NCBI GenBank assembly: GCA_000165345.1
Contig: CM000434.1
Coordinates: 1,184,001-1,248,000 of the forward strand
Length of the DNA: 64,000 nucleotides
Direction: 5' to 3'
Under the pieces are notes generated by a model. The model did no database searches. It saw only the letters and a program-made list of their open reading frames with translations, and was not told where the DNA came from. Made by a program: the position numbers and the translations under genes. The stretch's first letter is position 1; the number at the start of each line of letters is the position of its first letter. Positions 21,304 through 54,305 of this stretch are shown in pieces.

Positions 21304-30323
<9,020 letters not shown>

Positions 30324-30651: not shown

Positions 30652-32046
30652 ATGGAGGAGTTGAGAACAAATATAGAAGATTGTTTTGACACTTCCAAAA
30701 TTTTCAAGAGCTATAAATTGCCGTTTATTAAAGTAAAAATAAATAATTGTAACTATGTACAAAATTTGTTGAAAGAAAATGATATTCTTTTCAAGTTCCC
30801 AAGAGTATCTCCAATTATTAATGATGAAAAGAATAAGGAAAACAAATTAATTTTAATGGGTGAGGATTTATTACGGAATTACTACAAAGTTAGTGATAAA
30901 AGAATGAAATTAGAGGACAGGTCGAATTCAGAATTAGAATCAAATGGAGATTATATTATAGAATTATCAGATGATTTCTTTATAAAAATTCCAAGAAATG
31001 TATTTATTGGCTTAAATTCAATAGATTTTGCAGAATATGGAATAATGGATTTTAAGATAGAATATAAGTATCTTTCATATATTGAATGTGCTAGACAATG
31101 TATTCCAAATAACATTGAGATAGTATCAAGTTTTGAGACAATTGGACATATAGCTCATTTAAATTTGAATGAGGATAACTTCCAATATAGATATATTTTA
31201 GGAAAGATTTTATTAGATAAGAATCCAGGGATAAAAACGGTAGTAACGAAAACAGGAAATATTGAGAGTACATTTAGAACTTATCCTTTGGAGGTAATTG
31301 GTGGAGAAAATAATTTAAAGGCAAGACTTAAGGAACAGGGCATAATTTATAATATTAATATTGACCAGGTTTACTGGAATTCTAGACTTTCTAATGAGAG
31401 ACAAAGAATTGTTGAGCTGATTCCAAGAAAATCAATAGTCTTCGATTTAACTTGTGGAGCAGGAGCATTTACTCTTCCTCTAATAAAGATTAAGGATTGT
31501 ACTTTATTTTCTAATGATTTAAATCCAGATGCAATAAAATTATTAAAGGAAAATATGATCTCAAATAAACTCAAAGATGATAAGGTAATAACTTCACAAA
31601 AAGATTGTATTGAATGTATTCATGAAATTTTGAATAGAAATTTAGACCCAGAAAAGATCTTTAAGATTGAGAAGAATGCTCTAAATTTAATTTCTCATGA
31701 AAACGATGTATTTTACTGGATTTGCAATCTTCCTGAACTTTCCCTTAATATGTTAAAAGGATTTGTACAAGGGAAAAAAACTTATCTAGAAAAAAAAATT
31801 CAAGAAAACTCCTCTTTTAGAAACACAATGAACCATTTTTTCTTTTATTGCTTTTCAAAAGATCCCAATCCAAAAAAAGATATTGAAACTAGGATCTTTA
31901 CTTTCCTAGAATCGGATCCAACTACTATAAATTCAGAATATTTCTCTCCAATCAATCTTTCTATTCATGAAGTTAGAGATGTTTCCCCTAATAAAAAAAT
32001 GTATTGTGCTCAATTCTCCATGGTTATCCCTATTCAAGTAAATTAA
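30652..32046 (+). CDS. TRM5: tRNA (guanine37-N1)-methyltransferase Trm5/TRMT5
   Basis: SAM-MTase motifs typical of Trm5: VFDLTCGAGAFTLP (motif I), FSNDLNPDAIKLLKEN (the NDLNP catalytic motif), and the upstream D1/D2 region. Confidence 0.8.
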   Translation: MEELRTNIEDCFDTSKIFKSYKLPFIKVKINNCNYVQNLLKENDILFKFPRVSPIINDEKNKENKLILMGEDLLRNYYKVSDKRMKLEDRSNSELESNGDYIIELSDDFFIKIPRNVFIGLNSIDFAEYGIMDFKIEYKYLSYIECARQCIPNNIEIVSSFETIGHIAHLNLNEDNFQYRYILGKILLDKNPGIKTVVTKTGNIESTFRTYPLEVIGGENNLKARLKEQGIIYNINIDQVYWNSRLSNERQRIVELIPRKSIVFDLTCGAGAFTLPLIKIKDCTLFSNDLNPDAIKLLKENMISNKLKDDKVITSQKDCIECIHEILNRNLDPEKIFKIEKNALNLISHENDVFYWICNLPELSLNMLKGFVQGKKTYLEKKIQENSSFRNTMNHFFFYCFSKDPNPKKDIETRIFTFLESDPTTINSEYFSPINLSIHEVRDVSPNKKMYCAQFSMVIPIQVN

Positions 32047-32443: not shown

Positions 32444-33865
32444 TTGGTATTTACTATGGTTGTGAGAATACTTTACTTCTTGATTATATGTATCTGGAAT
32501 GTGAATATTGGATTTGGTCATAATGATGACCCTGCATCTGCAGCTCATCCTTCTCATGATAGTATTAAACAACAAAAAGTTGACAGAATAGTTATGATGA
32601 GACATTCATTTGAATCTCCTTTAACTCTCGATACAACTCTTTCTGAATGGGATTTAGCTATGGCGACAATTCCTGTTAGAAAAAGCGTGGTATTAGTTCC
32701 TGGTGTTAAGAACCGAACTGGTCAATTTTGGAATAAATCTCCACTCAATACTTCTCATTTTGAAATCACTTTCACTTTTGAAGTTGTTGGTACTCCAAAT
32801 AGTTCACAAGAAGGAGAGGGCTTTGCTTTTTGGTTTGTAAGCGAAGCTTATGGATCAATTTATCCAAAATCAAATGAAGATCTTGAATTATGGAATCTTT
32901 TAGGTTACAAAAACGCCCCAAAAGGTTTGGGAGTTATGTTTTCCTTCCTAGATCGTAATAACAAAAAGAATCCTTCTATCTCACTTCTTCTTTCAGATGG
33001 AGAGAAAACATTTTCTTCACATACTGATATCCCTACACATCTGGGAGTATATTACAACTTTATAAATTCAGAAGGTCCTACAACATTCAAACTTTATGTT
33101 TCTCCAGAAACAGGAATTATTGGTCAAATAAGAACTTCTCCGACTTCAAAGTGGATTGATTGCTTTAAATCAGATGCAAAATCAATTCCCTCTTCTATCA
33201 AGAATGGTGGTTTTATTGGTTTTTCTTCATATACTGGTCCTGAAGTTCCAAATCAACCAAAAGTTGCTGATCGAATTTCCATAATTTCTTTGAATGTTTA
33301 CAATTTGGACCTAACTAGAGCTGGAGAAGAGATTCCAGATTCACTTAAACATGATTCCAATACTGAACAAGTTGAAGTCACTGACTTGTTGAGAGATACT
33401 CACGTACATGGGGACAAAGATGTTGCTGAAGCTCTCAAAGCATTTTCACAAATTCTATACAAACATATTACAGAAGCAACTCCAAGAGAACAAGCAATTC
33501 ATAGAACTTTGAATTCACTACTTTCTCAGGTCCAAAAACTTACTACTGAGATTAAGGAGGTGCAACGCATTCTTTCAATTAATTCAGGAACAAACCACAG
33601 TGAGACCTTAAACACTGTCCAAACAGAAATTGTTGGACTTAAGACATTATTTGATAGACATTCAAAATATCAAACTAATACACTTATTGGGTTGGAAGAT
33701 ACCTTAAAGAATAAAGAGGATGTAGCATCCCAAGTACATAAAGCAATTAAAAGCCAGTCTTCTACGACTTCCATTGTATCTATTGCATTAATTATCATTA
33801 TCGTAGTTTTTGGACTGGTTGTATGGAAGAAAGTTAAGGATATTGAGAAGAAACATCTCTTATAA
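32444..33865 (+). CDS. L-type (legume-like) lectin cargo receptor, ERGIC-53/VIP36/Emp47-like; signal peptide, lectin domain, coiled coil, C-terminal TM
   Basis: The signal peptide is MVVRILYFLIICIWNVNIG. The lectin-domain blocks GEGFAFWFVSEA, LGVMFSFLDRNNKKNPSISLLL and GGFIGFSSYTG parallel ERGIC-53 (ADGLAIWYAE, VGIFFDSFDNDGKKNNPAIVII, GHFGISAATGG). The C-terminal TM is IVSIALIIIIVVFGLVVW. Confidence 0.8.
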   Translation: MVFTMVVRILYFLIICIWNVNIGFGHNDDPASAAHPSHDSIKQQKVDRIVMMRHSFESPLTLDTTLSEWDLAMATIPVRKSVVLVPGVKNRTGQFWNKSPLNTSHFEITFTFEVVGTPNSSQEGEGFAFWFVSEAYGSIYPKSNEDLELWNLLGYKNAPKGLGVMFSFLDRNNKKNPSISLLLSDGEKTFSSHTDIPTHLGVYYNFINSEGPTTFKLYVSPETGIIGQIRTSPTSKWIDCFKSDAKSIPSSIKNGGFIGFSSYTGPEVPNQPKVADRISIISLNVYNLDLTRAGEEIPDSLKHDSNTEQVEVTDLLRDTHVHGDKDVAEALKAFSQILYKHITEATPREQAIHRTLNSLLSQVQKLTTEIKEVQRILSINSGTNHSETLNTVQTEIVGLKTLFDRHSKYQTNTLIGLEDTLKNKEDVASQVHKAIKSQSSTTSIVSIALIIIIVVFGLVVWKKVKDIEKKHLL

Positions 33866-33954: not shown

Positions 33955-35334
33955 TTATTCATTAATCTCAGAATGGGATTCAGATTCTTCATGTTTACAT
34001 TTTATACCCAAACTTGATAACTTGTTTATTAGTGTAGTGAAAAAGTTTGGATCTGGAAATCCGTGTAAAGCTGGCCCTCCACAAGTTGAAATCTTATGTG
34101 GAATATTGCCCCATTGAACAATTTCCATAGATGATCCTGTTGAAGGATTAGTAATACTGTTCACTTTGAATGTATGGCCAAGTTGGAAAGCTTTAGCAAG
34201 TCCATCAAGCATTATGAGACCTTTTTTATTAAATGGTAAATATGCAATTTTGTATGTTCCTGTATATAACTTATTTGGACTTGGATGTCTCTGATTTTGG
34301 ATACCACTTGGAATAAAATATTCAATTTCAATCACATTTGTATTAGGATAACTTTCTATCTCAATATTTCCAGATTTATAAACAATATATCTCATTTTCC
34401 CAGGAGGTGAATTTCCTCTTCCAAAGCATTGTGGAGTCATACAAAGTGGGCATAACAAAGCTGTTTTGTTATTCAGATGACTTATCATATCATTTAAACA
34501 CTCTGAATGGAAAACATGCGAACATTTATTCAGCTTGACTAAATCCCTATTCAGAGCATCCAAACATAAACAACAATCATCATCCACTTGTGCTTGTTCT
34601 AGTAACTTGGATACAGTAAAGTCAATTTCTTGCTTAGTGAATGCATTAGAGTATCCTTCACAATTAAATTCTCCAGTCTCAACAATTATTGAAAGTGCAT
34701 CTTGGATTTGAGGTTTACTAGTATCAGTAAATTCCCATTCCAAATTAAAATCATTTTCCTTATCTGAATCTTGAGAATTGTCAGTAACTTCGTATTCTAC
34801 CTTCTTTAAATATCTTCTATAAATCTTTCTTTCTTTTCCAGTAATTCTATTCACTTGAACACATTCTATTGGGTAGATATCATACTGGTTCCAAACAACG
34901 CACTCTCCAGATTTTGGTCTTTTAACCAATTCATTATTAATAGCTGGTTGTAGGGCGTCAGAACCTTTGCATGATTTCTGACAATTATTATGACTATGAT
35001 GACTATTCTCATCATTTTGCGATTCTTTATAAAGGTTCCATTGAATATGCAGATAAAATCTCTCAATTTGAGCAGATACATTTGGTTGGTAAAGGTTTAA
35101 CTGATCATCATTATCTGTCCAGAACCATACAGCTGAAGAAATATCTCTACTTATCCTTCTGTGACGTTGAGTAATGAAGTTAAATTGGTAAAAGTGCCGG
35201 AGATTAAGTAGAAATGGTATTCCTCCAACATTGATGATTATGTTAACTTCTTTTTTTCTCCATGATTTCTCAATAACAGCAGAGTTTTCCAAAGAATAAT
35301 AAACCCATCCTTCATCTGACCACCAACGCCACAT
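33955..35334 (-). CDS. Deltex-like E3 ubiquitin ligase: two WWE domains, RING-H2, Deltex C-terminal (DTC) domain
   Basis: WWE 1 is WRWWSDEGWVYYSLENSAVIEKSW...QRHRRISR. WWE 2 is VWFWTDNDDQLNLYQPNVSAQIERFY. The RING is CCLCLD...CSHVFHSEC...CPLC. The DTC matches human DTX1 closely: SPPGKM against QPPGKM; YFIPSGIQNQRHPSPNK against YDIPTGIQGPEHPNPGK; AYLPFNKKGLIMLDGLAKAF against CYLPNNEKGRKVLRLLITAW; IVQWGNIPHKIS...HGFPDPNFFTTLINKL against VVWNEIHHKTEF...HGYPDASYLDNVLAEL. Confidence 0.85.
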   Translation of the reverse strand: MWRWWSDEGWVYYSLENSAVIEKSWRKKEVNIIINVGGIPFLLNLRHFYQFNFITQRHRRISRDISSAVWFWTDNDDQLNLYQPNVSAQIERFYLHIQWNLYKESQNDENSHHSHNNCQKSCKGSDALQPAINNELVKRPKSGECVVWNQYDIYPIECVQVNRITGKERKIYRRYLKKVEYEVTDNSQDSDKENDFNLEWEFTDTSKPQIQDALSIIVETGEFNCEGYSNAFTKQEIDFTVSKLLEQAQVDDDCCLCLDALNRDLVKLNKCSHVFHSECLNDMISHLNNKTALLCPLCMTPQCFGRGNSPPGKMRYIVYKSGNIEIESYPNTNVIEIEYFIPSGIQNQRHPSPNKLYTGTYKIAYLPFNKKGLIMLDGLAKAFQLGHTFKVNSITNPSTGSSMEIVQWGNIPHKISTCGGPALHGFPDPNFFTTLINKLSSLGIKCKHEESESHSEINE

Positions 35335-35806
35335 CCTTGATAAAGTTCATGCGATTTCCACCTCTGAGATATTCTTGATTAATTAGCTATTCTGCTAATT
35401 TTTTTAAGAAAATGTAAGATAATCTTTTCTCACATTCCAGCATAAATATGTGGGATTTTTCTTTGTAAATTCTATAAAAAGACTCTCCACAAACGACTTT
35501 TACTCTTAAAATAAGAAAAAGAAAAACCTCACTAATAGTCCATTTTTTACATTTGAGAAATTTTCCACACTATTTTTGCTGACATTTTTACATTTTAAAA
35601 TGTTTACAAATTTACTTCTTCAAACGTTTTCAAAGAAAAAACAATATGATTTGGTCTTTTAGAAACTTATGCAGGAGTTTATTCTTATTTTATCACTTCA
35701 AAAATTCCCATAAATCTCCAAATTACACAAATTTTCTCTCATTTTTACATCTTCACCTTTTTGACTGTTTTGCAAATTAAACTCCCCACACTGTATGACT
35801 ATTATT

Positions 35807-35848
35807 GGGCGCCTAAAACACTTGCAAAGTGGTTGCATGCATGCATGC
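35807..35848. promoter_or_regulatory. GGGCGCCTAAAACACTTGCAAAGTGGTTGCATGCATGCATGCAA: GGCGCC plus (GCAT)3GC
   Basis: Divergent spacer between the Deltex-like gene (ATG 35334, minus) and the CKK-domain gene (ATG 36015, plus). Confidence 0.55.
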
Positions 35849-36014
35849 AAAGTTTGTAAATTGTCAATTACGTGGAGGCATAGCAAAAAAGTAGTGTAAA
35901 TATATTGAAAAGGTATCACAAAAAAAGATTTTTTTGTAAAGATTGTAGTAATCTTAATTTATTATTTTTTTTTAAATAAAGTTTGTTTAGGACCATTATT
36001 TAAAGAAAGTTAGT

Positions 36015-37046
36015 ATGGCAAGTATGAGCAGACATTACAACAATATATCAGAACTTCCATATATTGATTTAGATAGAATTGAAGAGTTGAGAAGACAGAA
36101 TGATAGATGCTGCTGCAATTCCAGAGGGGAGAAGTTATACCAAAGAAATTGCATGGATTATCAATACTCGAAAAGAGAAGGTTGTATAAGAGAAAGGAGA
36201 GGATATTGTGATTTTGAGTTGGATGAACTTAGAGAAGATGATGGATGTATTCATGGAATAAGATTCTATAAAGACTCGAATTTGGATCAAAATTACGATT
36301 TGGGATTTGAAAAAAATTGTAATAGACTTCCAATCTTACACTCAAATTGTAAATTAAGAACAATGAACGATAGTAACTACTATTCTAACAATGGTAATAA
36401 TTGCATATATTGCAATGCTAGTCTAGAAAGAACTTCAAATACCAGAGAACGGGATTTTTTTAATGGACAGGATAGAAGAGTGCATTCTTATAGTAAACAG
36501 TGTTTATCAGAAGATTCAGATACTAATGATTACAAAGATATAGGACAAGAATATAATTCAGATTATGAATATAGAAGAGGCCAAAACGTCTCAAGAAACA
36601 ACTGTGAAAGACAGTTTTCAGATGAGTATTCAGATTTATCAGAGGATATGGAAGTGGTTATCAAAAGAAATAATAGAAATGTAATATCTCTAGCATTAAA
36701 TTGGATCAGTCTTTCAGGAGAACACAATAAAAAAATTAGAAAGTTTGTAATGGATTCAATGAACTCTATTGAGTTAAAAGATTTAAATCACTTTATAATT
36801 TTATTCCAGTACGATGATCATAAAGGTATACGCGGACTTTACTCATTTTTCCAGAAAGAAAACAATTGGCAATGTGTAGTTGAAATTGTACCAAATTGTC
36901 CAAAAGTTATACGCAAAGAAATGGTGCATACATTGTATAAGTTTGACACTAGTCAGAAACTATTCAAGCCTATAAATAGATCAAAAAAGATTACAGATAT
37001 TGTTGATGGATTAAGTATAAAGAATGAATATTTAAGTACTCAATAA
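36015..37046 (+). CDS. CKK-domain protein (CAMSAP/Patronin-type microtubule minus-end binding domain) with Cys-rich N-terminal half
   Basis: C-terminal NHFIILFQYDDHKGIRGLYSFFQKENNWQCVVEIVPNCPKVIRKEMVHTLYKFDTSQKLFKPINRSKKITDIVDGLSI parallels the CAMSAP CKK sequence NHFLILFRDSSCQFRALYTLSGETEELSRLAGYGPRTVTPAMVEGIYKYNSDRKRFTQIPAKTMSMSVDAFTI. Confidence 0.7.
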   Translation: MASMSRHYNNISELPYIDLDRIEELRRQNDRCCCNSRGEKLYQRNCMDYQYSKREGCIRERRGYCDFELDELREDDGCIHGIRFYKDSNLDQNYDLGFEKNCNRLPILHSNCKLRTMNDSNYYSNNGNNCIYCNASLERTSNTRERDFFNGQDRRVHSYSKQCLSEDSDTNDYKDIGQEYNSDYEYRRGQNVSRNNCERQFSDEYSDLSEDMEVVIKRNNRNVISLALNWISLSGEHNKKIRKFVMDSMNSIELKDLNHFIILFQYDDHKGIRGLYSFFQKENNWQCVVEIVPNCPKVIRKEMVHTLYKFDTSQKLFKPINRSKKITDIVDGLSIKNEYLSTQ

Positions 37047-37052
37047 TAAAGG

Positions 37053-39530
37053 CTAAACCATTAGCTTTAATTCCGACATTTGACTTTGGAACAAGTTATA
37101 GTTGGCCTGGACTCCTACAGTTCCTACAAGTCTTTCAGGATGCAATGCAGGAAGGCCAAGAATTTGTTCAATACTTGGAATTTGATCAATATTTGGATTC
37201 AACATGGCATTCAAAAGTTCCTTCACATGACTAGATAACTTTAAGTATAGGTTATCATTTTTTGATTCAAAGCTATAATATTCTCCAGTTAAGCAAAAGT
37301 ATAAAAGAACACCAATCATATAAATATGTATTTTTTCAAAAATGTCACAAAAGCGTCCAATGTCCATTAGTTTATTCTTAAGGAGCTTAATGTTATCTAT
37401 ATTAAATATATAACCGTCAGAATTAATGGTATCTTTAATAATTGGAGGAAAATAATTAACAATATCATCATTTTTTTGGCCTTGAGTAAAGCTACTACAT
37501 CGCATCAAGTTTGTTGGATATTTCTTCTTAAAAACAATATCGTCTTGTAGTGAGTCAACCTTCGAGTCTAAATCAATTAGATCCAATGGCCCTAATAATA
37601 AACAACTCTCTTCTTTTCTAATGTATACTCTACTTGCTTTTATTGGGAAAATAAAACTTTTCATTTTTTGTTTACCATTATCTTCTTTGAAGGAGGAGAA
37701 CAAAAAGAAAAGCCTTAGAAGAGACCTAATATACATTAAAGACGTGGACTCTCCAAGAACTCCATTTAAATTTATATATGAAAGGATATCATAGCATTCC
37801 ATATGAGGATAAATCTCAACAATTGTAGAGTTTAAAGACAAAGGAGTATACCATTCAAATATTCCAGAGCATAATACAATATCAGAGACTCCTTGATTCA
37901 TTTGCCTGTTCCTAATACTTTTCGAGTTTAACAAAGAATGGACATTACAATTTTGTTTGAGAAACGAAATAATTTCTAAAGGAACTTCTTTTTCTTTCAT
38001 TTGGCTAATTTGTGAGTTGAAGGCATTCTTAATAATTCTCAATCTTTCAAATGATTCTTGCATCACTACTTTCAACTTGTGAGTATTGGAGGAAATGGAT
38101 ACATTAGAAGAGAACATTGATTCCCTCTGGATTTCATTCTTTGCTGAAAAATCCAGTCTATATAGCTTCAGTACACAGGGAACTAGTTCAGTAAAGTCAA
38201 AAGCTGTCCAGCAGATACTCCTTCTTCCAATACCAATGGGATTTAGGAACATGTGGCGATTATTCACAGTAGAAGGAAAGTTCGAAAGAGGCGAAGATTC
38301 CAAAAGCTTTAGAATATTTGATAATTTAATCAGTAAATTCCTTTTTGTCTTTAAGGCTGACTCCTTTTCTTGAAGTTTATCACTAAGATACCTGGAAAGA
38401 ACTGACCTACAATGCAGACTAAGCTCACTATCGTCGTTAATCATCTTGTTTTCAAGATTCCGATAATTACTATATGATTCATCATCCTCAAAACCCATTT
38501 CATTAAAAGATGAAGAAAAGATGGAGTTATTATCTTGGCTATTCAAATGACTCCGTATTAACTTCCCTTGTAATTCTGCTATTTTATGATGCTGATTTAC
38601 CAAGTCCATTGCATCTGCTCCCATATACCAAGAAGTATTCTTAATATGAACAATCTCCTTATCTTGGCTCATTCCAACATCATCCATAGTTTGGATATCC
38701 GAAAATTTGTCTAATCTCGGAAATCCTACTTGAGAAGTCAAATAATTAATGCAAATGTGCAAAAGTTTTCTTTCTGAGATCGTTAGTTGTCTAAGTCTTG
38801 GTTTAAGAAGGCGAATACCTCTCTCAAGCTCATTTTCTATTGAAAGTTGAAGTTCAATATTAATCTTCATCTCTTGTTCAAGACAATCTATTTGGTTCAT
38901 ACAATCTTGCCAATTTTCCATGAAAGCATTAAAATCTTCTTCATTTACCTGCTCAATCAACTCCTGAGATAACTCTACTGTTTCATAAAGCTTCGATGAA
39001 GCTGGCTGGGTATTTGCAAAGAATATTGGACTCTCAAAGTTGTCAGTTAATCCAATAGGACAAGATCCTGTTGCATTTGGTTCAGAAAACCGTCTTTCAA
39101 ACATTTCAAACTTTTCTGGATTAATCTTTGACCAAAGCATTCCTCTTAAACCTCTGAAATCAATTGGATCTGGGGCTTCACCCCTTTGGCTATCTAATTC
39201 ACCATTATTCATTTCAGAATCTTCTCCTAGACTGTCTTTTGATTGGAACTCTTGGCTTGCAGGACAAGCAACAATATCACCACATCGACACATTCCATTT
39301 TCAAAGTCATTACAGCATTCTCCTTTCAATTTCTTATGACTAATGGCTTCGAGAACTCTTGGCTCTCTAAAATTCTGTGGATAAATTAAAACACCAGGAA
39401 CTGGTCTATAACCCGTTCTTTTGGGGGCATTTCTAAGAAACAGCTTTCTTATATCTAACTGGTTGGATCTTTTTAGTTCATCTCCCAAACCAGAATCCTT
39501 ATTTTTTCTGGATCGCTTTCTTTTGCTCAT
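37053..39530 (-). CDS. Protein kinase-like protein (probable pseudokinase or atypical kinase) with basic N-terminus and Cys-knuckle
   Basis: The N-terminus has a KRKRSRK NLS-like stretch and CCNDFENGMCRCGDIVACP. The C-terminal region shows a recognisable kinase C-lobe (YMIGVLLYFCLTGEYYSFE; ELLNAMLNPNIDQIPSIEQIL). The catalytic motifs are degenerate (NIDNIKLLKN in place of HRDLKxxN; DIG in place of DFG). Confidence 0.55.
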   Translation of the reverse strand: MSKRKRSRKNKDSGLGDELKRSNQLDIRKLFLRNAPKRTGYRPVPGVLIYPQNFREPRVLEAISHKKLKGECCNDFENGMCRCGDIVACPASQEFQSKDSLGEDSEMNNGELDSQRGEAPDPIDFRGLRGMLWSKINPEKFEMFERRFSEPNATGSCPIGLTDNFESPIFFANTQPASSKLYETVELSQELIEQVNEEDFNAFMENWQDCMNQIDCLEQEMKINIELQLSIENELERGIRLLKPRLRQLTISERKLLHICINYLTSQVGFPRLDKFSDIQTMDDVGMSQDKEIVHIKNTSWYMGADAMDLVNQHHKIAELQGKLIRSHLNSQDNNSIFSSSFNEMGFEDDESYSNYRNLENKMINDDSELSLHCRSVLSRYLSDKLQEKESALKTKRNLLIKLSNILKLLESSPLSNFPSTVNNRHMFLNPIGIGRRSICWTAFDFTELVPCVLKLYRLDFSAKNEIQRESMFSSNVSISSNTHKLKVVMQESFERLRIIKNAFNSQISQMKEKEVPLEIISFLKQNCNVHSLLNSKSIRNRQMNQGVSDIVLCSGIFEWYTPLSLNSTIVEIYPHMECYDILSYINLNGVLGESTSLMYIRSLLRLFFLFSSFKEDNGKQKMKSFIFPIKASRVYIRKEESCLLLGPLDLIDLDSKVDSLQDDIVFKKKYPTNLMRCSSFTQGQKNDDIVNYFPPIIKDTINSDGYIFNIDNIKLLKNKLMDIGRFCDIFEKIHIYMIGVLLYFCLTGEYYSFESKNDNLYLKLSSHVKELLNAMLNPNIDQIPSIEQILGLPALHPERLVGTVGVQANYNLFQSQMSELKLMV

Positions 39531-43174: not shown

Positions 43175-44214
43175 ATGACAGATTTTGTGACAAAAAAACT
43201 AGAAGTAGAAAATAAAGCTTCTAAAAGTGAAAATAGTGAGGAAATCGATTTAAATAATAAGGAAACATTTGTAAATCAAGTAGTTAGTGATGAAAATACA
43301 ATTTGTACAAGAGGAACAGAATCTTCGATTTTCACAATCTTGAGGAATTCAAGGAGAGAACATTTCTTTGATGCTCGTATAAAGTTATATAAAGAGAAGC
43401 TTAGTTTAATGGAGAAAGAAGGTAAGATGAAGTTCAGTAAGGGGATAAACTCTCGAAAAAGTATGCAAAGATGTTGCAAAATGAATAAATATCAAATATA
43501 CCGTATATTGATTACTATTTTGGGAGTTTTTTTTATGTTATTAGCATTGTTTGGTGTATCATTCTTATTGTTGCTTCCAAAGATTGCTGAAATTCAAATA
43601 AGGAACTCAAAAATGGATATTCAAGAAATCAATGTTTTTCAGATTAGTAGGCAGAATGGAGAAACTTCATTTGAAGTGGATTCAATATTGGCTATAGATA
43701 AAGTATCAAAGTACAAGACTGAGTTTATTCATTCATTAATGCAGATAAGCTATGGAATAAAAGGAGAAGAAACTAAATCTTTGGGTGAATTATATATTTC
43801 ACAGATGTCTGTGAATGAGGATGGAATTTTAAAAGCAAGAGGAAGATTTACAATAAGGAATAATGAATCACTTAATGAATTGATTAATTACATGACATCA
43901 AGTTTGAATGTTAATAACAAGGATGAAGCTATAGAGAAGAATATCACATTTTATGGGAAAGGTTTAATGTCTCTAAGGATCTTTGGAATATTACTAAATA
44001 ACATAAATGTGGATAGAGAACTGAGCTATTCTTCAGTTTATGGATTGAATGGAACGTCTGAAAGAAGTTCTATTAATGGAAAGGAGGTTAGAGACAGAGT
44101 TTCTTCTGATAATGCCCCACTTTCGAACAAAAATGGATTAAAAATTCATAATATTTGGTTAAACTCTCACAAAATGGGTGGTATGAGATTGAATCTAGAG
44201 CTTGAACTTGATTT
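43175..44214 (+). CDS. Type II membrane protein paralog (5' part; ORF continues into N-masked region)
   Basis: Cytoplasmic N-terminus, then one TM (IYRILITILGVFFMLLALFGVSFLLLL), then the shared QIRNSK motif. There is no stop before the masked stretch. Confidence 0.6.
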
Positions 44215-47175
44215 TCANANANNNANNGNTNANAATNGNANANNANNNNNNTNNAANNAGNTNTTNNNNNNNNNNNCNNNANNTNGNNNATANNGNNNNC
44301 TNANNNNANNNNTNNNAATANNNANAATNNNANNTNNNTANTGCANANTCNNNTNGTNNNATGNAANNNTNCNNNTTCANNTNNANNANNTTNNNNNTAN
44401 TNNNTNNGNTTTATTNNNNGNGNANNNNANNANNNNNNATNNNNNNNNNNNNCNATAANNANNNTNTTNNAAAANNNGNNANNTCCNANNNNNTTNNNNN
44501 ANNNAAANNNNNNNNNTNNNGANNNGNNNNCNNNNANNNNNNNNNNNNNTNATNNNNNANTGAANNNNNNANTTNTNNNTNNTTTAAGNNGTNNNNTNNN
44601 ANNNNNATNNNNNNNNNTNNNTNNNNNNNNNNNNNNNNNNNNTNTCNNTNNNNNNNTCTNTCTNNNNTNNNTNNNTNTNTNNNNNTNTNNNNNTNTNTNC
44701 NNNNCTCNGATNANNNNNNNNNTTACTNNCTNNNANNCNTAAANTNNNNTTANATTNANNNNNTGNNCNNGATTANNNNNNNNANAANNNTAANNNCNAN
44801 NNNNNNTANNNCNNNNNNNACTNNNNNAANNNACCNGANNNTNNNNANNNNNNNTTNNNTNNNAAAGNNNNAAAAAAANNNNNNNCTTNNTCNNTNANAA
44901 ANNTNNNNCNNANCNCNNNNNAANNNTGNTNCNNNANNNNCNNNNNCGNNTNNTNNNTNATNANNNNNNTNNNTNNNNNNNNANNGNTANNNNNAATNNA
45001 NNNNNNNTNNTGNNNNNNATNTANAAAANNNTNNNNANTTNTNTCANNANNTNNNNNTNNNNANNNNTNNNNANTNNNNGNTNTNNATNNANNNAANNAN
45101 NNTNTNNNNNTCANNNNANNNNNNNNTNTNNNGGANNATNNNNNNNANNNAAANANNNNCNNNNATAANGNNNNNCNAAANNNTACANNNNTNGNNNNTT
45201 NNANANTNNCTNNNNTTANTTANTNNNNANTNCNANAANTTANNTNATTNNNANNNNNATANANNNNNCNNTNACAAGNATNNTNNGNNNNNCTNNNTNN
45301 AATNNAANANTNANACNANNNNNNNNNNTNNNNANACNNNNNNAANNNCCAANTNAANNNNNATNNANNNTNNNNNATNNGNANATGATGANNNTAANNN
45401 NNANGANNTANNNNANNNNNNNTNNNANNTNANNNNNNNNNNANTNCNNANNNNTNTNNTNNNNNNNNTNNNNCANNTTNTANNTCNNNTNNCANNNNNN
45501 NNNANNANNNTTNNGANNNGNNNNNAAANNNTNNTTATNNNTTNCTNNNNNNNNNNNANCCNNANTNCTANAGANANNCNNNNNNANACNATNNGNANNN
45601 NATTNNANCTNNATGNNNGNNNACNNNNNNNTNNTNNNGNANTNTNNNNNNNNNNTNNTNTNNNANTNANNNNNNNNNGNANANNNTTNATNNNTNNAAN
45701 ANNANATNNNNNNNTNNNTTANTNNNANNAANTANANNANNTNTTGANNNANNTNCNNANNNNNTANANTNATNNTNTNANNNANTNTNANNNNNTTCNT
45801 TNTNANNNNNGNTAAATNNNNNATNNNNGNNNNANNANNTNNNNTNGNNNTTANNNNNANTGAANNNNNAANNNATTNNTNTNTNNANTNNTNNAATTAT
45901 NCTNAATNNTTATNNGAANANNNATNNNANNTTTTGGANANNNAATNNAAAAGNNNACNNCNNATNNNNNANNANNNNNNANCNNNTAATAANAANATAA
46001 NNNNANNANNNATNNNNNNNTANATTTAANNNNTNNNNNNNTNNNNNTANNTNNNNCTATTNTTNAACTNNTTTTNNCNNNNNNNANTNNNNNNAATANT
46101 TNTNTCANTNNTAAANNNNNGNNNANNNANTNNNATNTNANNNNAGNCNANNNNNNNNNNANTCNAATNNCNNNTNTNATNATNANNNNNNANNTGAAAN
46201 TNGNNTNNATNNTGANANANAANAAANANNAAANANAANNATGNNNNNNNNAATNNNANNNNANANAAATTANANTNNATNNNNNANTNNNNNTTNTTNN
46301 AGNNNAATTNATNNNNNANNNNNANTNNTGANNNANANTNANNANTNNTNNNNNGNNNTANGNTNTANGTNTNANTNNCNATTATNNNNNNNTNNNNTNN
46401 NNNANNNNNTNNNNGNNNNNTGNTGNCNTGNNATNNTANNNNTNNNATNATNTNAANNNANTNNNNNANNNNNTNTNNNANNNNNTNATANNANNNNACN
46501 AANNNNNNNNNNNNNNNNNNNTNNNANNNNNNTNNTCNNANNNCATNNNANNNANGNAAAGANTNNANANTNNNNTNNNNNANNNAANNTNACNNNATTN
46601 NANNNTNNNNNTNTANTNNNNAAANNAATNNANTNGNTNNNANNNTTTNNNNTNNANNNNNNTNNNNNTAANTNAATNANTNNANNANNNNNTNNNCNGN
46701 NNNTNAANNNNNNNNTNNNTANNNGGNGNNANNNNNTNNNNNNNANNNTNNNNNNNNNATNNNNTNNNANNNNCANNANANNNNNCNNATNNNTNNATNN
46801 NNGNNNNNTNATNNNTNNNNNAANTNNNNNANTANANNNAATGTANTNATNNNNNNNNANTTGNANGANNGNNTANATNNNTNNNANANNNNNNNNNNNN
46901 NNTTNATANNTNCTNNNANANNNNTTGATATACAGTNGNNTATNAGNTNTCAATANNCNANANTATGTTGAAANTATGNAANTTNNTNTAANNANGGNTN
47001 NACTGNNTNTTTNNNTTGGAAAAGATGTCNANANGANCNNNTANTCAGCNNTNANNNAGANTCNNAGANANGCNTATNNTTCNGCNNACNAAGTNGANTG
47101 TATCGNAGTCAGNNTGTNATGNTNTTGNTCCNNNTGNAGTTCANGNNNTCNNATGANGNANTNGATCNNGAANTA
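44215..47175. other. Heavily N-masked interval (about 70-75% N interspersed with single residual bases); not annotatable
   Basis: Direct observation. The X-filled ORFs in the track are artefacts of N translation. Confidence 0.95.
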
Positions 47176-47334
47176 GANNAANATNANGAAGAAAAATTAC
47201 ATATTAAAGCTATTAATACTCCTCATGGTATACCATATTGGCTTGTTCCAGTATTTGAATTTCTCAAATTACCAGCTTCCAGTACTTTAAGTAGTCTAGA
47301 TTCAGCAGAGTTTGGATCAGTTACTTTTTCATAA
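47176..47334 (+). CDS. 3' end of a gene emerging from the masked region (...EEKLHIKAINTPHGIPYWLVPVFEFLKLPASSTLSSLDSAEFGSVTFS*)
   Basis: Clean ORF tail with a stop at 47332-47334. It may be the C-terminus of the 43175 gene or of a separate gene. Confidence 0.4.
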   Translation, partial: XXXXEEKLHIKAINTPHGIPYWLVPVFEFLKLPASSTLSSLDSAEFGSVTFS

Positions 47335-47541: not shown

Positions 47542-49470
47542 ATGGATGATATTTATTTGGCAGAATTTCATGGTTTTATTGATGAAAAAACATGGGAAAT
47601 TGCTAAATTAAGTATACATTATCTTCATACACTTAAAGAAAATATAATAAAAGTCTTGGAAAATGGAGGTACACTTGAGAAATATTCTCATTTAAGAGAT
47701 TTAATTGAAATTGTAAGAATATGTATTTTACATGGTATTTTAATTGGAATAAATTATTTAAATAAATCAGAAGATAATTACAAATATGATTATGGTTCTT
47801 TGTATCATTTTGTAAGAATATTCCCAGAACTTAATGAATTAGGAAAAGTTGATGATATGTGTTTTTTATCATTTTTATTAATGAATAAAGTATTTACTGG
47901 ATTTCTTGAATCTATTAAAAATCCTTCATCAAAATGGAATCAAAGAATAACAATGTATTATCATCATGCTAGTATTTTGAGATATAGTGAATTCTTGAAA
48001 GAGTTTATTTTAATAATCAACAGTTTTGAAAATTGTCTAAGAATCAAAAATTTCCATATTCCTAATAATTGGATGACTTATTTTGCAAAATTATCATTAA
48101 GATGGAATAATTTTGGAAATGATCAAACAACAGAAATATCAATTATTAATGAGAATTTTAAGAATATTAAATATAAAACAAAACAATATAATCATCATGA
48201 TCAAAAAATTCTTAAAAATCTTACAAATATTAATGATATAGAAATTGATTCTAAATCTACTTTAAGTATTTTATTAAAGCAAGAATTTGAACAAAAGATC
48301 AATTTTAAAGATTATAATATATTTGATGATAGAGCTTTTATTTCAAAATCAAGTATATTAAATTCAAATAATGAATTGGATCCAGATATATTAAGTGATA
48401 ATAATGATCATATTGTTGTATATAATGAAAGAAATATTCAAGATATTGAAGATTTATTGGGGGATATGTGGTGTCCAATGTTTGATTATTCTCCTATATC
48501 TGAAAAACTTTATTTAGAAAATGAAGAAGAAAATTTTGTAAATTATGATAATGAAAATAATAATAATAATAACAATAATGACAATAATAATGAATATAAT
48601 AAATTACAAGAAAAAGATGAAAAAAATAATATAGAGTTAAATAATATTTATAATTATGAAGATATTAATCATTATATAAATATTAATAATGAATCAGATT
48701 TATCTAATTTCAAGATTAATTATGAATTAAAATTGATAAAAAATGATAATAATGAATTGAAAGAAAGGTATTTATCTTATTATCATATTCCATTAAATAA
48801 ACAAGAAGAAAGGTTAATATTAGAATTACAAGATTATAAATGTTTTACAAAACATTGTGAAAATATATTAGAATTTGATCAAGAATCTAAATTGAATTTC
48901 TGTTGTTTTACTGGTTATTATTATTGTGATTATTGTTATGGATCAAATACATGTTCAATTTTACCAGGTCTTCTTGCAAAATATGGAAATTTAACACCAG
49001 TTCCAGTATCAATTAAATCTAAAGAAAAATTAAAAAGTCTTGAAAATATACCATTGATTAAGATTCATTCATTAACAGCTGAAATATGGGAATCTAATAA
49101 GTATATTAAACAATTGGTATATTTGAAATCATATTTATCATCATTATTAATTATGAATGATAATAATAATAATAATAATAATAAATGTCAATATAAAGAA
49201 TCAATAAAAAGAAGATTATTAAGAGAATATGATATAATATATCAATTTGGTAGATATGAATATTTTTCAGTAAATCAATTAACAGAAATAGCTTATGAGA
49301 TATTTTCACAAGAGGTTACAATGTATTCAAATGAAACAAATATTCAAATTACTGTAAGAGAAATGAAAAATATTGCAATCAATTGGAGAAAACATTTATT
49401 AAAATGTATACATTGTCAATATCAAAATAAAAATTCAAAGAAAGATTTAATTTTATCTTTAAAAGAGTAA
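47542..49470 (+). CDS. RUN-domain plus Rubicon-homology (RH/DUF4206) zinc-finger protein (Rubicon/PLEKHM1/DEF8 class)
   Basis: The N-terminus is RUN-like (LHTLKENIIKVLENGGTLEKYSHLRDLIEIVRICILHGILIG...FLSFLLMN). The C-terminal Cys/His cluster (CFTKHCENI...FCCFTGYYYCDYCYGSNTCSILPGLLAKYGNLTPVPVS...IPLIKIHSL) is followed by the helical tail typical of RH domains. In between is a poly-N/D low-complexity region. Confidence 0.6.
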   Translation: MDDIYLAEFHGFIDEKTWEIAKLSIHYLHTLKENIIKVLENGGTLEKYSHLRDLIEIVRICILHGILIGINYLNKSEDNYKYDYGSLYHFVRIFPELNELGKVDDMCFLSFLLMNKVFTGFLESIKNPSSKWNQRITMYYHHASILRYSEFLKEFILIINSFENCLRIKNFHIPNNWMTYFAKLSLRWNNFGNDQTTEISIINENFKNIKYKTKQYNHHDQKILKNLTNINDIEIDSKSTLSILLKQEFEQKINFKDYNIFDDRAFISKSSILNSNNELDPDILSDNNDHIVVYNERNIQDIEDLLGDMWCPMFDYSPISEKLYLENEEENFVNYDNENNNNNNNNDNNNEYNKLQEKDEKNNIELNNIYNYEDINHYININNESDLSNFKINYELKLIKNDNNELKERYLSYYHIPLNKQEERLILELQDYKCFTKHCENILEFDQESKLNFCCFTGYYYCDYCYGSNTCSILPGLLAKYGNLTPVPVSIKSKEKLKSLENIPLIKIHSLTAEIWESNKYIKQLVYLKSYLSSLLIMNDNNNNNNNKCQYKESIKRRLLREYDIIYQFGRYEYFSVNQLTEIAYEIFSQEVTMYSNETNIQITVREMKNIAINWRKHLLKCIHCQYQNKNSKKDLILSLKE

Positions 49471-52250: not shown

Positions 52251-54305
52251 ATGAGAGAGGAGTATAACTATGATAGTTATAAGTACAGAGAGGGTGGAAT
52301 TAAAAGAGAGGAGTTGAAACAAAATAAGTTTGGTAGAGCAGAACTTTTAAAAAAGGAAAATGAATTAAGCAAACGAGAAGGAGCAGTGTTAAAGTCCAAA
52401 AATGTTCCAAAGCTTGCTTTGGAATCTGTGGATCCAAAAAGCAAATGGAAACAAATAACATCTAGTACATTCTACGGTGACTCGGGTCCATTACTTTCAA
52501 AGTTACACTCAGTTCCAGAGGAATTACAAAGACACTTTGAGATTTATGATGGAATTGAGGGAGTATTAGGTAGAGGAGCGTATTCAAGCGTATTTAAGAT
52601 CAGAAGTAAAAGAAGTGGTAATATATATGCATTAAAAGTTATGAGCGTAGAGCATTTTACTTGTAGAGGATTGTCAGGACAATTAAGAAGAGAAATTCAA
52701 CTTCAATCACAATGTTTTCATCCTAATATTGTTCAGTTATATAAATGTTTGGAACATAATGGGTATGTATTTTTGATTCTAGAGTATGTAGACACTAATT
52801 TATTCAATATTCTTCATAGAAAAAAGAAGAACCATGTAATTAGAGCTGGAGCTAGACGAAATAGATATATTCCAAGTGACGAAGAATATCAAGAAGAAGA
52901 ATCGTCTCTTTTTGCAAGAAATGAAGTGGTGAGTTATTTAACCCAAATACTCAAGGCTATTAATTATCTTCATGAAATGAGTATAGTTCATAGAGATGTT
53001 AAGCCTGAGAATATTTTAATTTCTTGTGAAGGAAGAGTTAAGCTTGGAGATTTTGGGTGGTGTGGAGATTTATGTAGGAGATGTAATTCAATGGCAGGAA
53101 CATTCTGTTATATGGCTCCAGAAATCCTTAAAGGTGAAAGACAAACAGCTAAAGTGGATTCTTGGAGCGTTGGAATTTTAATTTACGAGCTTTATATGGG
53201 AAATGTACCATTTATTCCAAATAACTCATCTGGAGGAGGAGGGAGAGGAGGAAGAGAGGGAGAATGTGATGGAAATACTAATTCTCAAGTAATTTCAATG
53301 CTAAATTCTATTAGAGAAATCTCCAAGGATGCAAGACCCAGTAGATTTCCACCAGATGCCTGGCATCTTTGTTGTTGGCTACTAAGGAAAAACTCCAACG
53401 AAAGAGCTTCTCCAATTCAAGCTCTCAACCATCCATTTCTAGCTGATGGCAACCTTACTTCTCCCATTCCTATTACTCCTTTCAGAAGGCCTGAATTTCA
53501 ATTAAATTCTACTCCAAAGACTGTCAGGCAAGATATATCTTCCCCTAAAGTACAAAATTCCACTACTTTTACTACCCTTCCTCTTGTTGCAGTTCCCACT
53601 CCAAGAAAAGCCTCCGAGAAGGAAAAGTTGAGGCCAGAAACCCAAATTAAAAGAATGGTAACTGAGATACCAACTAATATGTATAACTATAACTATAACT
53701 ATAACTCTGAAAGAAGTTCTGGTTTGCATGCCAATAATAACTATCTCTCGCAGAAAACTGCTTTGAATGCACCTGTTGTTGGAGTTGGACCAGGAATTAA
53801 TGTTGTTTCTGTCCAAACTGATCACTACAAACAACAAAATCCTAGTTCTGAAACTAGGTACTATCAATATCAACAGGCCCGTGTCGCAAATACCAAAAGA
53901 GCAGATGAACCTCAGAGAAGAGATCTTTCTGTTGTTAGGAATCCTCTTCCCAGAGATCATTTTGGCCCAGGATACTTACAAAAGATTCCTCAACAGTATC
54001 CTATTGATCAAAACCCTAGAATCAATTATAATGAAAACTTCCAGGTTTCATCAAGGCCTGTATTTGATAGAAATCAGTTATATGGACAAGCACCACCTCA
54101 GCCTCAAGGAATCATCTCTCGTGATATTTATATGCCTCCTGTTCCACAAATGGGATCAGGATTTCCCCAAAATCAGCCCAACAAACCCATATTAAGGCAA
54201 AATACACCTCCAAATAGATATGTCAGTCAACCTCCCATATATTACTATGAACAACAACCATCACAAGTAAGAAGGAATCACTACATATCACAAAACCACC
54301 ATTGA
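52251..54305 (+). CDS. Aurora-family Ser/Thr kinase with long Q/P/N-rich C-terminal tail
   Basis: Kinase motifs: LGRGAYSSVFK...YALKVM, HPNIVQLY, VHRDVKPENILIS, GDFGW (the Aurora-typical DFGWS), GTFCYMAPE, DSWSVGILIYELYMGNVPF. There is a kinase-insert region. A (TATAAC)4 repeat at 53684-53710 encodes NYNYNYN. Confidence 0.8.
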   Translation: MREEYNYDSYKYREGGIKREELKQNKFGRAELLKKENELSKREGAVLKSKNVPKLALESVDPKSKWKQITSSTFYGDSGPLLSKLHSVPEELQRHFEIYDGIEGVLGRGAYSSVFKIRSKRSGNIYALKVMSVEHFTCRGLSGQLRREIQLQSQCFHPNIVQLYKCLEHNGYVFLILEYVDTNLFNILHRKKKNHVIRAGARRNRYIPSDEEYQEEESSLFARNEVVSYLTQILKAINYLHEMSIVHRDVKPENILISCEGRVKLGDFGWCGDLCRRCNSMAGTFCYMAPEILKGERQTAKVDSWSVGILIYELYMGNVPFIPNNSSGGGGRGGREGECDGNTNSQVISMLNSIREISKDARPSRFPPDAWHLCCWLLRKNSNERASPIQALNHPFLADGNLTSPIPITPFRRPEFQLNSTPKTVRQDISSPKVQNSTTFTTLPLVAVPTPRKASEKEKLRPETQIKRMVTEIPTNMYNYNYNYNSERSSGLHANNNYLSQKTALNAPVVGVGPGINVVSVQTDHYKQQNPSSETRYYQYQQARVANTKRADEPQRRDLSVVRNPLPRDHFGPGYLQKIPQQYPIDQNPRINYNENFQVSSRPVFDRNQLYGQAPPQPQGIISRDIYMPPVPQMGSGFPQNQPNKPILRQNTPPNRYVSQPPIYYYEQQPSQVRRNHYISQNHH

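Follow-up and report, generated by a model that had tools for sequence, protein, structure and literature searches.

A conserved Cryptosporidium parvum CKK-domain protein with genus-specific departures from CAMSAP

INTRODUCTION

Minus-end recognition is the defining activity of the CKK domains of metazoan microtubule-binding proteins, a trait that, according to one proposal, was ancestral in eukaryotes (PMC6868217). Cryo-electron microscopy places CKK domains as wedges between protofilaments at the intradimer junction (Atherton et al. 2019, PMC6868217), and several determinants of their behavior are known from the same work. The N1492A substitution in human CAMSAP1 raises affinity for the microtubule lattice and lowers minus-end selectivity, and two arginines in loop 3, R1528 and R1535 (the latter contacts the β-tubulin tail), add to the affinity of the domain (PMC6868217). 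The N- and C-terminal flanks of the CKK are needed for affinity and also modulate end preference; their removal “drastically reduced” the affinity of both the human and the Naegleria domains (PMC6868217). The CKKs of Naegleria gruberi (NgCKK), which has a loop 3 longer than the human one by one residue, and of Phytophthora infestans bind microtubules without a minus-end preference (PMC6868217). The published assays used mammalian tubulin, a caveat that extends to parasite tubulin and that the authors raise likewise for Naegleria (PMC6868217).

Very little work has been done on the microtubule-associated proteins of Cryptosporidium, a genus with an unusual tubulin cytoskeleton. Sporozoites and merozoites of C. 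parvum contain two rigid, stable microtubules, one long and one short, in merogony microtubules are rebuilt, a pair to each nucleus, and microgametes contain dense tubulin structures (PMC8464796). Cryo-electron tomography has revealed an apical polar ring with 2 to 3 long subpellicular microtubules and a majority that measure only 100 to 200 nm (PMC10412601). The two long microtubules carry γ-tubulin at their anterior ends and support kinesin-dependent trafficking of a microneme protein (PMC10865969). Minus ends therefore lie apically, which makes an apical location for a minus-end-binding protein anatomically possible, although these ends may be γ-tubulin capped and not free. Our literature search found no study of the gene described here or of any apicomplexan CKK protein (Cryptosporidium, Toxoplasma, or Plasmodium).

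We analyzed a stretch of 64,000 nucleotides of C. parvum chromosome 6 (here called the window; GenBank contig CM000434.1, positions 1,184,001 to 1,248,000 of the forward strand), in which a first-pass annotation made from the sequence alone had picked out an open reading frame (ORF) with a C-terminal CKK-like region and a Cys-rich N-terminal half.

RESULTS

A single-exon gene conserved in sequence and position across Cryptosporidium

The ORF occupies positions 36015..37046 (+ strand) of the window and encodes 343 amino acids (aa) followed by a TAA stop codon; it begins with ATG, and an in-frame stop codon lies 27 nt 5′ of that ATG. It is a complete single-exon coding sequence, the product of which is 100% identical to the C. 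parvum Iowa II entry (EAK90089.1, CAD98333.1; UniProt Q5CWG6; CPATCC_003108), so that the source is indeed a parasite, as first supposed, namely, the apicomplexan C. parvum. The C. hominis orthologue is CHM_6g5160, a locus tag that likewise points to chromosome 6, and we infer that the C. parvum gene is cgd6_5160. The UniRef name of Q5CWG6 is “CKK domain-containing protein,” and public records of the orthologues (C. hominis, C. felis, and others) carry the label [quoted passage not shown] Because UniRef already carries the CKK name, the identification is not new: assignment of the CKK domain to this protein is already known through automated public annotation.

Orthologues of 335 to 372 aa are present in nine further Cryptosporidium lineages, including C. 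bovis, C. ryanae, and the gastric species C. serpentis. The C. bovis and C. serpentis orthologues likewise consist of one exon, and their surroundings match those in the window, the shared order being a TYW2/TRM5 methyltransferase gene, a legume-type lectin gene, a Deltex-type WWE-RING-DTC ligase gene (− strand), the CKK gene (+), an ~820-aa gene (−), and an ~739-aa gene (−). The Deltex-type E3 ligase gene (33955..35334, −) and the CKK gene are thus arranged head to head, in C. bovis and C. serpentis as well, and by the ORF coordinates they share a divergent intergenic region of 680 bp (35335..36014) that presumably holds both promoters. On its other side the CKK gene converges with a gene for an 825-aa protein (37053..39530, −) that is conserved in the genus and gave no Pfam match. 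Only 6 bp separate the two stop codons (9 bp in chipmunk genotype I and 3 bp in C. ubiquitum), and hence the transcripts of these convergent genes must share sequence at their 3′ ends. We concluded that the ORF is a real, conserved C. parvum gene and that its product alone represents the CKK-domain family in Cryptosporidium.

Several neighbors have features of their own. The ligase carries WWE, RING, and Deltex C-terminal domains (98.5 bits for the DTC), and the gene at 30652..32046 (+) encodes the TYW2/TRM5-type tRNA methyltransferase. The lectin at 32444..33865 (+) is of the legume-like ERGIC-53/VIP36 type; its ORF as listed begins with TTG, the true start probably being a downstream ATG, and aa 418 to 460 give a subthreshold match to a SNARE domain (24.2 bits versus a gathering score of 26.8), an odd combination if real. 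Farther away lie an ORF of 2,711 aa (21304..29439, −), rich in I, L, K, and N, within a stretch of 18 to 28% GC that has a strongly negative GC skew (down to −0.57); a protein with a Rubicon homology domain and long runs of Asn (47542..49470, +); and a protein kinase (52251..54305, +). Between positions 44210 and 47100, about 60% of the letters are N, interspersed individually among the other bases instead of forming one block, and the gene starting at 43175 (+) extends into this masked stretch. We rejected as artifacts of the N masking both the apparent 5 to 10% GC content at 44 to 47 kb and the listed ORFs 44202..45815 and 46241..47176.

The CKK gene is under purifying selection. Nei-Gojobori estimates of omega among C. 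parvum, chipmunk genotype I, and C. ubiquitum were 0.06 to 0.07 for the CKK (aa 215 to 340), 0.02 to 0.12 for an N-terminal motif (aa 8 to 27), and 0.14 to 0.24 for the variable remainder of the N-terminal half (aa 28 to 200), and there was no amino acid change at all among these three in the acidic stretch directly before the CKK (aa 201 to 214). Across the genus, identity is 62 to 93% in the CKK versus 16 to 70% in aa 28 to 200; the N-terminal half is thus fast evolving yet constrained. The protein has a mass of 41 kDa, and its two parts differ in charge, the N-terminal half being acidic (pI 5.0) and the CKK basic (pI 9.6).

The C-terminal third is a CAMSAP-type CKK domain

The Pfam family CAMSAP_CKK (PF08683) matched aa 217 to 335 over profile positions 9 to 119 of 119 (E = 2.5e-19), with 69.9 bits versus a gathering score of 27, and it also matched all nine Cryptosporidium orthologues. 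A phmmer search of the PDB gave significant E values for CKK chains only, namely, those of human CAMSAP1 (E = 3.8e-8), CAMSAP3 (9e-5), and N. gruberi (3.6e-3). From the Pfam and PDB matches and a structural model we place the domain at aa 215 to 340 (36657..37034, +), where the model has two helices and then a β-barrel-like sheet. This model, a template-free AlphaFold2 prediction for aa 205 to 343 made from a family-wide alignment of 61 sequences, has a pLDDT of 78.9 and a pTM of 0.73, and the sheet that follows its two helices has six strands. (A full-length prediction from the nine-sequence genus alignment had a pLDDT of 33 and was discarded in favor of the CKK-only model.) In a Foldseek search of the PDB, all nine significant matches to the model were CKK domains, eight of them with a target-normalized TM score of 0.85 to 0.89 and a root mean square deviation (rmsd) of about 2 Å and the ninth, the nuclear magnetic resonance (NMR) model 1UGJ, with 0.74 and 4.6 Å, and the tenth match reached only E = 0.5; this fold match depends in part on the sequence match, because the alignment used for modeling consists of CKK sequences. 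Residues N220, G235, P296, and F317 are invariant across the 61-sequence alignment and are kept in C. parvum, as are the near-invariant A227, L263, F264, Y276, and D331. The domain call is therefore robust, and the homology proposed in the first-pass annotation held both in the profile search and in the fold comparison, the two checks on which it had been staked.

The same annotation had described the protein as lacking calponin-homology (CH) and coiled-coil regions, and this too was confirmed: PF08683 was the sole Pfam match, no second family being found in the 343 aa at E ≤ 10. The protein did not match CH or CAMSAP_CH at that threshold, nor did any orthologue match them in Pfam (the same tool detected CH plus CKK in a chytrid protein), and at the level of the Pfam scan neither the protein nor the orthologues matched CAMSAP_CC1 or coiled-coil families. 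The 343-aa protein thus does not have the architecture of a full-length CAMSAP/Patronin, with its CH domain and coiled coils.

CKK-only proteins are widespread among protists

Profile searches gave scores of at least 226 bits within Cryptosporidium and of 76 bits at best outside the genus, a fall that marks the Cryptosporidium CKK as a long, separate branch of the family. The relatives identified by name were ciliates (Paramecium and Nyctotherus), the syndinian Amoebophrya, the squirmid Digyalum oweni, neocallimastigid and chytrid fungi, and animals; a broad CKK profile search returned chiefly metazoan fragments and added little. Of the relatives that were scanned against Pfam, the CKK was the only domain, and C-terminal, in Paramecium (381 aa), Nyctotherus, Amoebophrya, Digyalum, and Neocallimastix (258 aa), and the chytrid protein alone had CH plus CKK, as in animals. 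Since the scanned ciliate, syndinian, squirmid, and neocallimastigid relatives also have only a C-terminal CKK, the layout of the Cryptosporidium protein is not unusual, whereas the first-pass annotation had minimal CKK proteins noted in a few protists. To judge by these sequences, a CKK without a CH domain or coiled coil is the common state outside the opisthokonts, and Cryptosporidium is among the shorter examples.

Among the 30 matches identified by name, none came from Toxoplasma, Plasmodium, or Eimeria, and a targeted search with a myzozoan-type (Amoebophrya/Digyalum-type) profile likewise yielded no coccidian or haemosporidian CKK. This hints that Cryptosporidium has kept a CKK gene that its better-studied apicomplexan relatives lost, a suggestive pattern and not a proven loss.

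Residues and flanks linked to minus-end selectivity are altered

We aligned the C. parvum CKK with human CAMSAP1 at the functionally characterized positions, for which the numbering of N1492 was fixed by two CAMSAP1 PDB chains that differ exactly there. The equivalent of N1492 is L226 (codon at 36690..36692, +), which is Leu in all 10 Cryptosporidium proteins; the position is Asn in 42 of 53 other CKKs. The affinity-linked R1528 in loop 3 aligns with Q265 (36807..36809, +), a residue that is Gln in nine and His in one of the Cryptosporidium sequences and Arg or Lys in 44 of the 53 others. The second loop 3 arginine, R1535, is retained as R273 (36831..36833, +), matching the Arg found in 38 of the 53. 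The distance from Q265 to R273 is 8 residues, as between R678 and R686 of NgCKK, versus 7 between R1528 and R1535 of the human protein.

The flanks differ as well. Directly before the CKK core lies an acidic, Ser-rich stretch, FSDEYSDLSEDMEV (aa 201 to 214; 36615..36656, +). All but one of the 10 Cryptosporidium proteins have a 15-residue N-terminal flank with a net charge of −2 to −5, the exception being that of C. serpentis (+4); in 71 other CKK proteins the charge of this flank averages +2.7 and ranges from −2 to +6. Because the gastric C. serpentis has a basic flank, the acidic patch seems younger than the split between the gastric and intestinal lineages. At the other end, the C. parvum protein stops three residues past the CKK; most Cryptosporidium species have a C-terminal tail of 0 to 3 residues, versus a median of 6 in other CKKs.

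Read against the published mutants, these substitutions would favor lattice binding over end specificity; they fall short of proof, Leu being different from Ala. The literature that we searched contains no description of the N1492L and R1528Q replacements, the acidic flank, or the persistent Cys enrichment of the N-terminal half (see below).

A genus-specific, Cys-enriched N-terminal half

The N-terminal half opens with a conserved motif, SELPYIDLDRIEELRR (aa 12 to 27; 36048..36095, +), in which P15 and R21 are invariant. Identity of this motif to C. parvum ranges from 29 to 100% and is at least 50% in all species except C. serpentis. It is predicted to form a short amphipathic helix, and the only helix that the low-confidence full-length model places in the N-terminal half is a short one at aa 19 to 30. 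The motif may be a docking or targeting element.

The fast-evolving region that follows (aa 28 to 200; 36096..36614, +) has no recognizable domain and few hydrophobic residues, abounds in N, S, D, E, R, and Y, and judging from its composition is probably largely disordered. The N-terminal half was originally called Cys rich, which its composition bears out: it has 13 Cys in 215 aa (6.0%), an enrichment of about 4-fold over the 1.4% of the other long ORFs of the window. The enrichment is maintained in all nine orthologues (8 to 15 Cys each; 3.8 to 7.0%), and no Cys position is invariant. What recurs is close pairs, near aa 30 (CxC/CCC/CWCC), aa 65 (CxC/CxxC; a single Cys in C. parvum), and aa 130 to 145 (CxxC/CxC). 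We considered a known zinc finger or other Cys-based domain and rejected it, there being no Pfam match in this half in any orthologue and no invariant Cys. The N-terminal half of the C. serpentis orthologue (L002 5001-6119) contains 16 His residues.

An exhaustive profile search of 1.84 billion representatives, together with local hidden Markov models, found neither the N-terminal half nor its motif outside the genus. By this measure the entire N-terminal half, including aa 12 to 27, is genus specific.

DISCUSSION

We favor the view, with a probability of about 0.5, that this protein is a microtubule-lattice-associated protein acting on the few stable microtubules of the parasite, with its N-terminal half tethering or regulating it. 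Microtubule binding itself would be expected by homology, and we infer the binding mode, the location, and the roles of the N-terminal half. In this model, the basic CKK would insert as a rigid wedge into the interprotofilament groove at the intradimer junction of polymerized tubulin, and with Leu226 it would decorate or stabilize the lattice as a clamp, possibly enriched near the apical origin of the microtubules, instead of serving as a stand-alone minus-end sensor. The genus-specific acidic N-terminal half would supply localization or regulation: the amphipathic helix at aa 12 to 27 could dock the protein, the Cys-enriched linker could be a metal-binding or S-acylated tether, and the invariant acidic, Ser-rich patch could be a phosphoregulated or autoinhibitory element that competes with the acidic tubulin tails for the basic surface of the CKK.

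The points that incline us to a lattice binder are Leu226, at the position where Ala increases lattice affinity at the expense of selectivity, Gln265 in place of R1528, the extra residue in loop 3 shared with the lattice-binding Naegleria domain, and the absence of end preference in the CKKs of both N. gruberi and P. infestans (PMC6868217). The strong constraint on the domain, seen in its omega, its identity across the genus, and its retention of invariant residues, is consistent with this reading, as is a setting of two stable long microtubules (PMC8464796) and short apical ones (PMC10412601). A part for the N-terminal half is suggested by its omega of 0.14 to 0.24, its conserved motif, its Cys enrichment, and its unchanging acidic patch. 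However, the R1528 substitution, the acidic N-terminal flank, and a C-terminal tail of 1 to 3 residues could instead lower affinity for microtubules; moreover, Leu at the N1492 position is not Ala, and Cryptosporidium tubulin may differ from the mammalian tubulin of the assays. The same substitutions and the meager tail, which amount to nonconservative changes at two of three functionally characterized positions and an acidic flank expected to be repelled by the likewise acidic surface of the microtubule, give some footing to the idea that the CKK has lost microtubule binding and become a protein interaction module, with the N-terminal motif and Cys clusters carrying the function, the more so given the need for flanks in the human and Naegleria domains (PMC6868217). 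We regard such a repurposing as improbable, the least favored of the readings considered here, given that no part of the protein is more constrained than the core (omega of about 0.06), which remains strongly basic and keeps the family-invariant residues and R273. Furthermore, the basic flank of C. serpentis suggests that the ancestral activity persists in the genus.

The proposal made when the gene was first noticed, that the protein marks microtubule minus ends at the apical polar ring, would make it a minimal Patronin whose CKK recognizes minus ends and caps or anchors them at that ring or at an apical microtubule-organizing center (MTOC). Minus-end recognition defines the metazoan domains and is proposed to be ancestral (PMC6868217), a polar ring with many very short subpellicular microtubules does exist (PMC10412601), and R273 and all family-invariant core residues are retained. 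On the other hand, Leu replaces N1492 throughout the genus, Gln or His replaces R1528, loop 3 is as long as that of NgCKK, and the flanking segments, which influence end preference and affinity, are acidic or all but missing; in addition, two of the protist CKKs assayed bind only the lattice (PMC6868217), and γ-tubulin sits at the anterior ends, which are perhaps already capped. The proposal thus seems somewhat weakened by the residue and flank substitutions, and minus-end recognition cannot simply be transferred from CAMSAP to the Cryptosporidium domain on the strength of homology; we consider this reading rather unlikely. A role in division or in gametes, on spindle or centrosome-associated microtubules in merogony or on microgamete microtubules instead of at the zoite cortex, strikes us as more doubtful still. 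Drosophila Patronin (ssp4) protects spindle minus ends, the founding insect member being a spindle length factor, and “Short spindle protein 4” is among the names of the CKK family matches. The paired rebuilding of microtubules per nucleus and the dense tubulin of microgametes would offer such a protein a substrate (PMC8464796), but the sequence gives no pointer to nuclear targeting. The alternatives are not all mutually exclusive, and a role in division or gametes is compatible with lattice binding.

Lattice binding can be carried further, to a speculation that we hold to be quite unlikely as a whole, below the division or gamete role and slightly ahead of repurposing. Cryptosporidium might be the only major parasitic apicomplexan lineage that keeps a CKK and might have rewired it as a switchable lattice clamp, tethered to the pellicle or apical MTOC. 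The switch would consist of Leu226 and a phosphorylatable acidic patch that mimics a tubulin tail, and the tether would be made up of an acylated or metal-binding Cys-rich linker and the N-terminal docking helix. If true, this could explain why the genus has just two extraordinarily stable long microtubules in place of a subpellicular array.

The identification itself is ordinary, since public databases already assign the domain and protist proteins with a CKK and no other domain are common; it is the genus-specific deviations that render this one a sensible, if modest, target for experiments. A single conserved CKK protein is a cheap, well-defined handle, a candidate marker or stabilizer of Cryptosporidium microtubules, and the replacement of Asn by Leu together with the acidic flank constitutes a natural variant that bears on models of how CKK domains discriminate between minus ends and the lattice.

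Among described systems, the metazoan CAMSAP1 to -3, Patronin, and PTRN-1 proteins (PF08683; structures 5M54, 5LZN, and 6QUS) have a CKK of like fold and length, also at the extreme C terminus, and the Cryptosporidium protein shares with CAMSAP1 to -3 the family-invariant residues and the Arg equivalent to R1535. In contrast, it lacks their CH domain, coiled coils, microtubule-binding domain (MBD), and other CAMSAP regions, has 343 aa versus their >1,000, and is only about 23 to 27% identical to them in the CKK; it has an acidic instead of a basic N-terminal flank and almost no C-terminal extension, and relative to CAMSAP1 it has Leu for N1492, Gln for R1528, and one more residue in loop 3.

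NgCKK (6QUY/6QVE), which is grouped with the P. infestans CKK, is nonmetazoan like the Cryptosporidium domain and resembles it in its loop 3 spacing of 8, its short C terminus, and its fold (Foldseek TM score, 0.85 to 0.87). It differs in having its own 34-residue insert in loop 4, which is missing from Cryptosporidium, an Arg (R678) where C. parvum has Gln at the R1528 position, and a parent protein of roughly 800 aa; its lattice-only behavior has been measured, whereas lattice binding by the Cryptosporidium CKK is a prediction.

Closest in score are the alveolate CKK-only proteins (Paramecium primaurelia CAD8060295.1, 381 aa; Nyctotherus; Amoebophrya; and D. oweni), which give the best values outside Cryptosporidium (51 to 76 bits) and likewise have the CKK as their only Pfam domain, at the C terminus; the Amoebophrya-type group also shares the Trp aligned with Cryptosporidium W285. 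Unlike the Cryptosporidium protein, however, these relatives keep Asn at the N1492 position and have basic flanks, and their N-terminal regions are unrelated to its N-terminal half.
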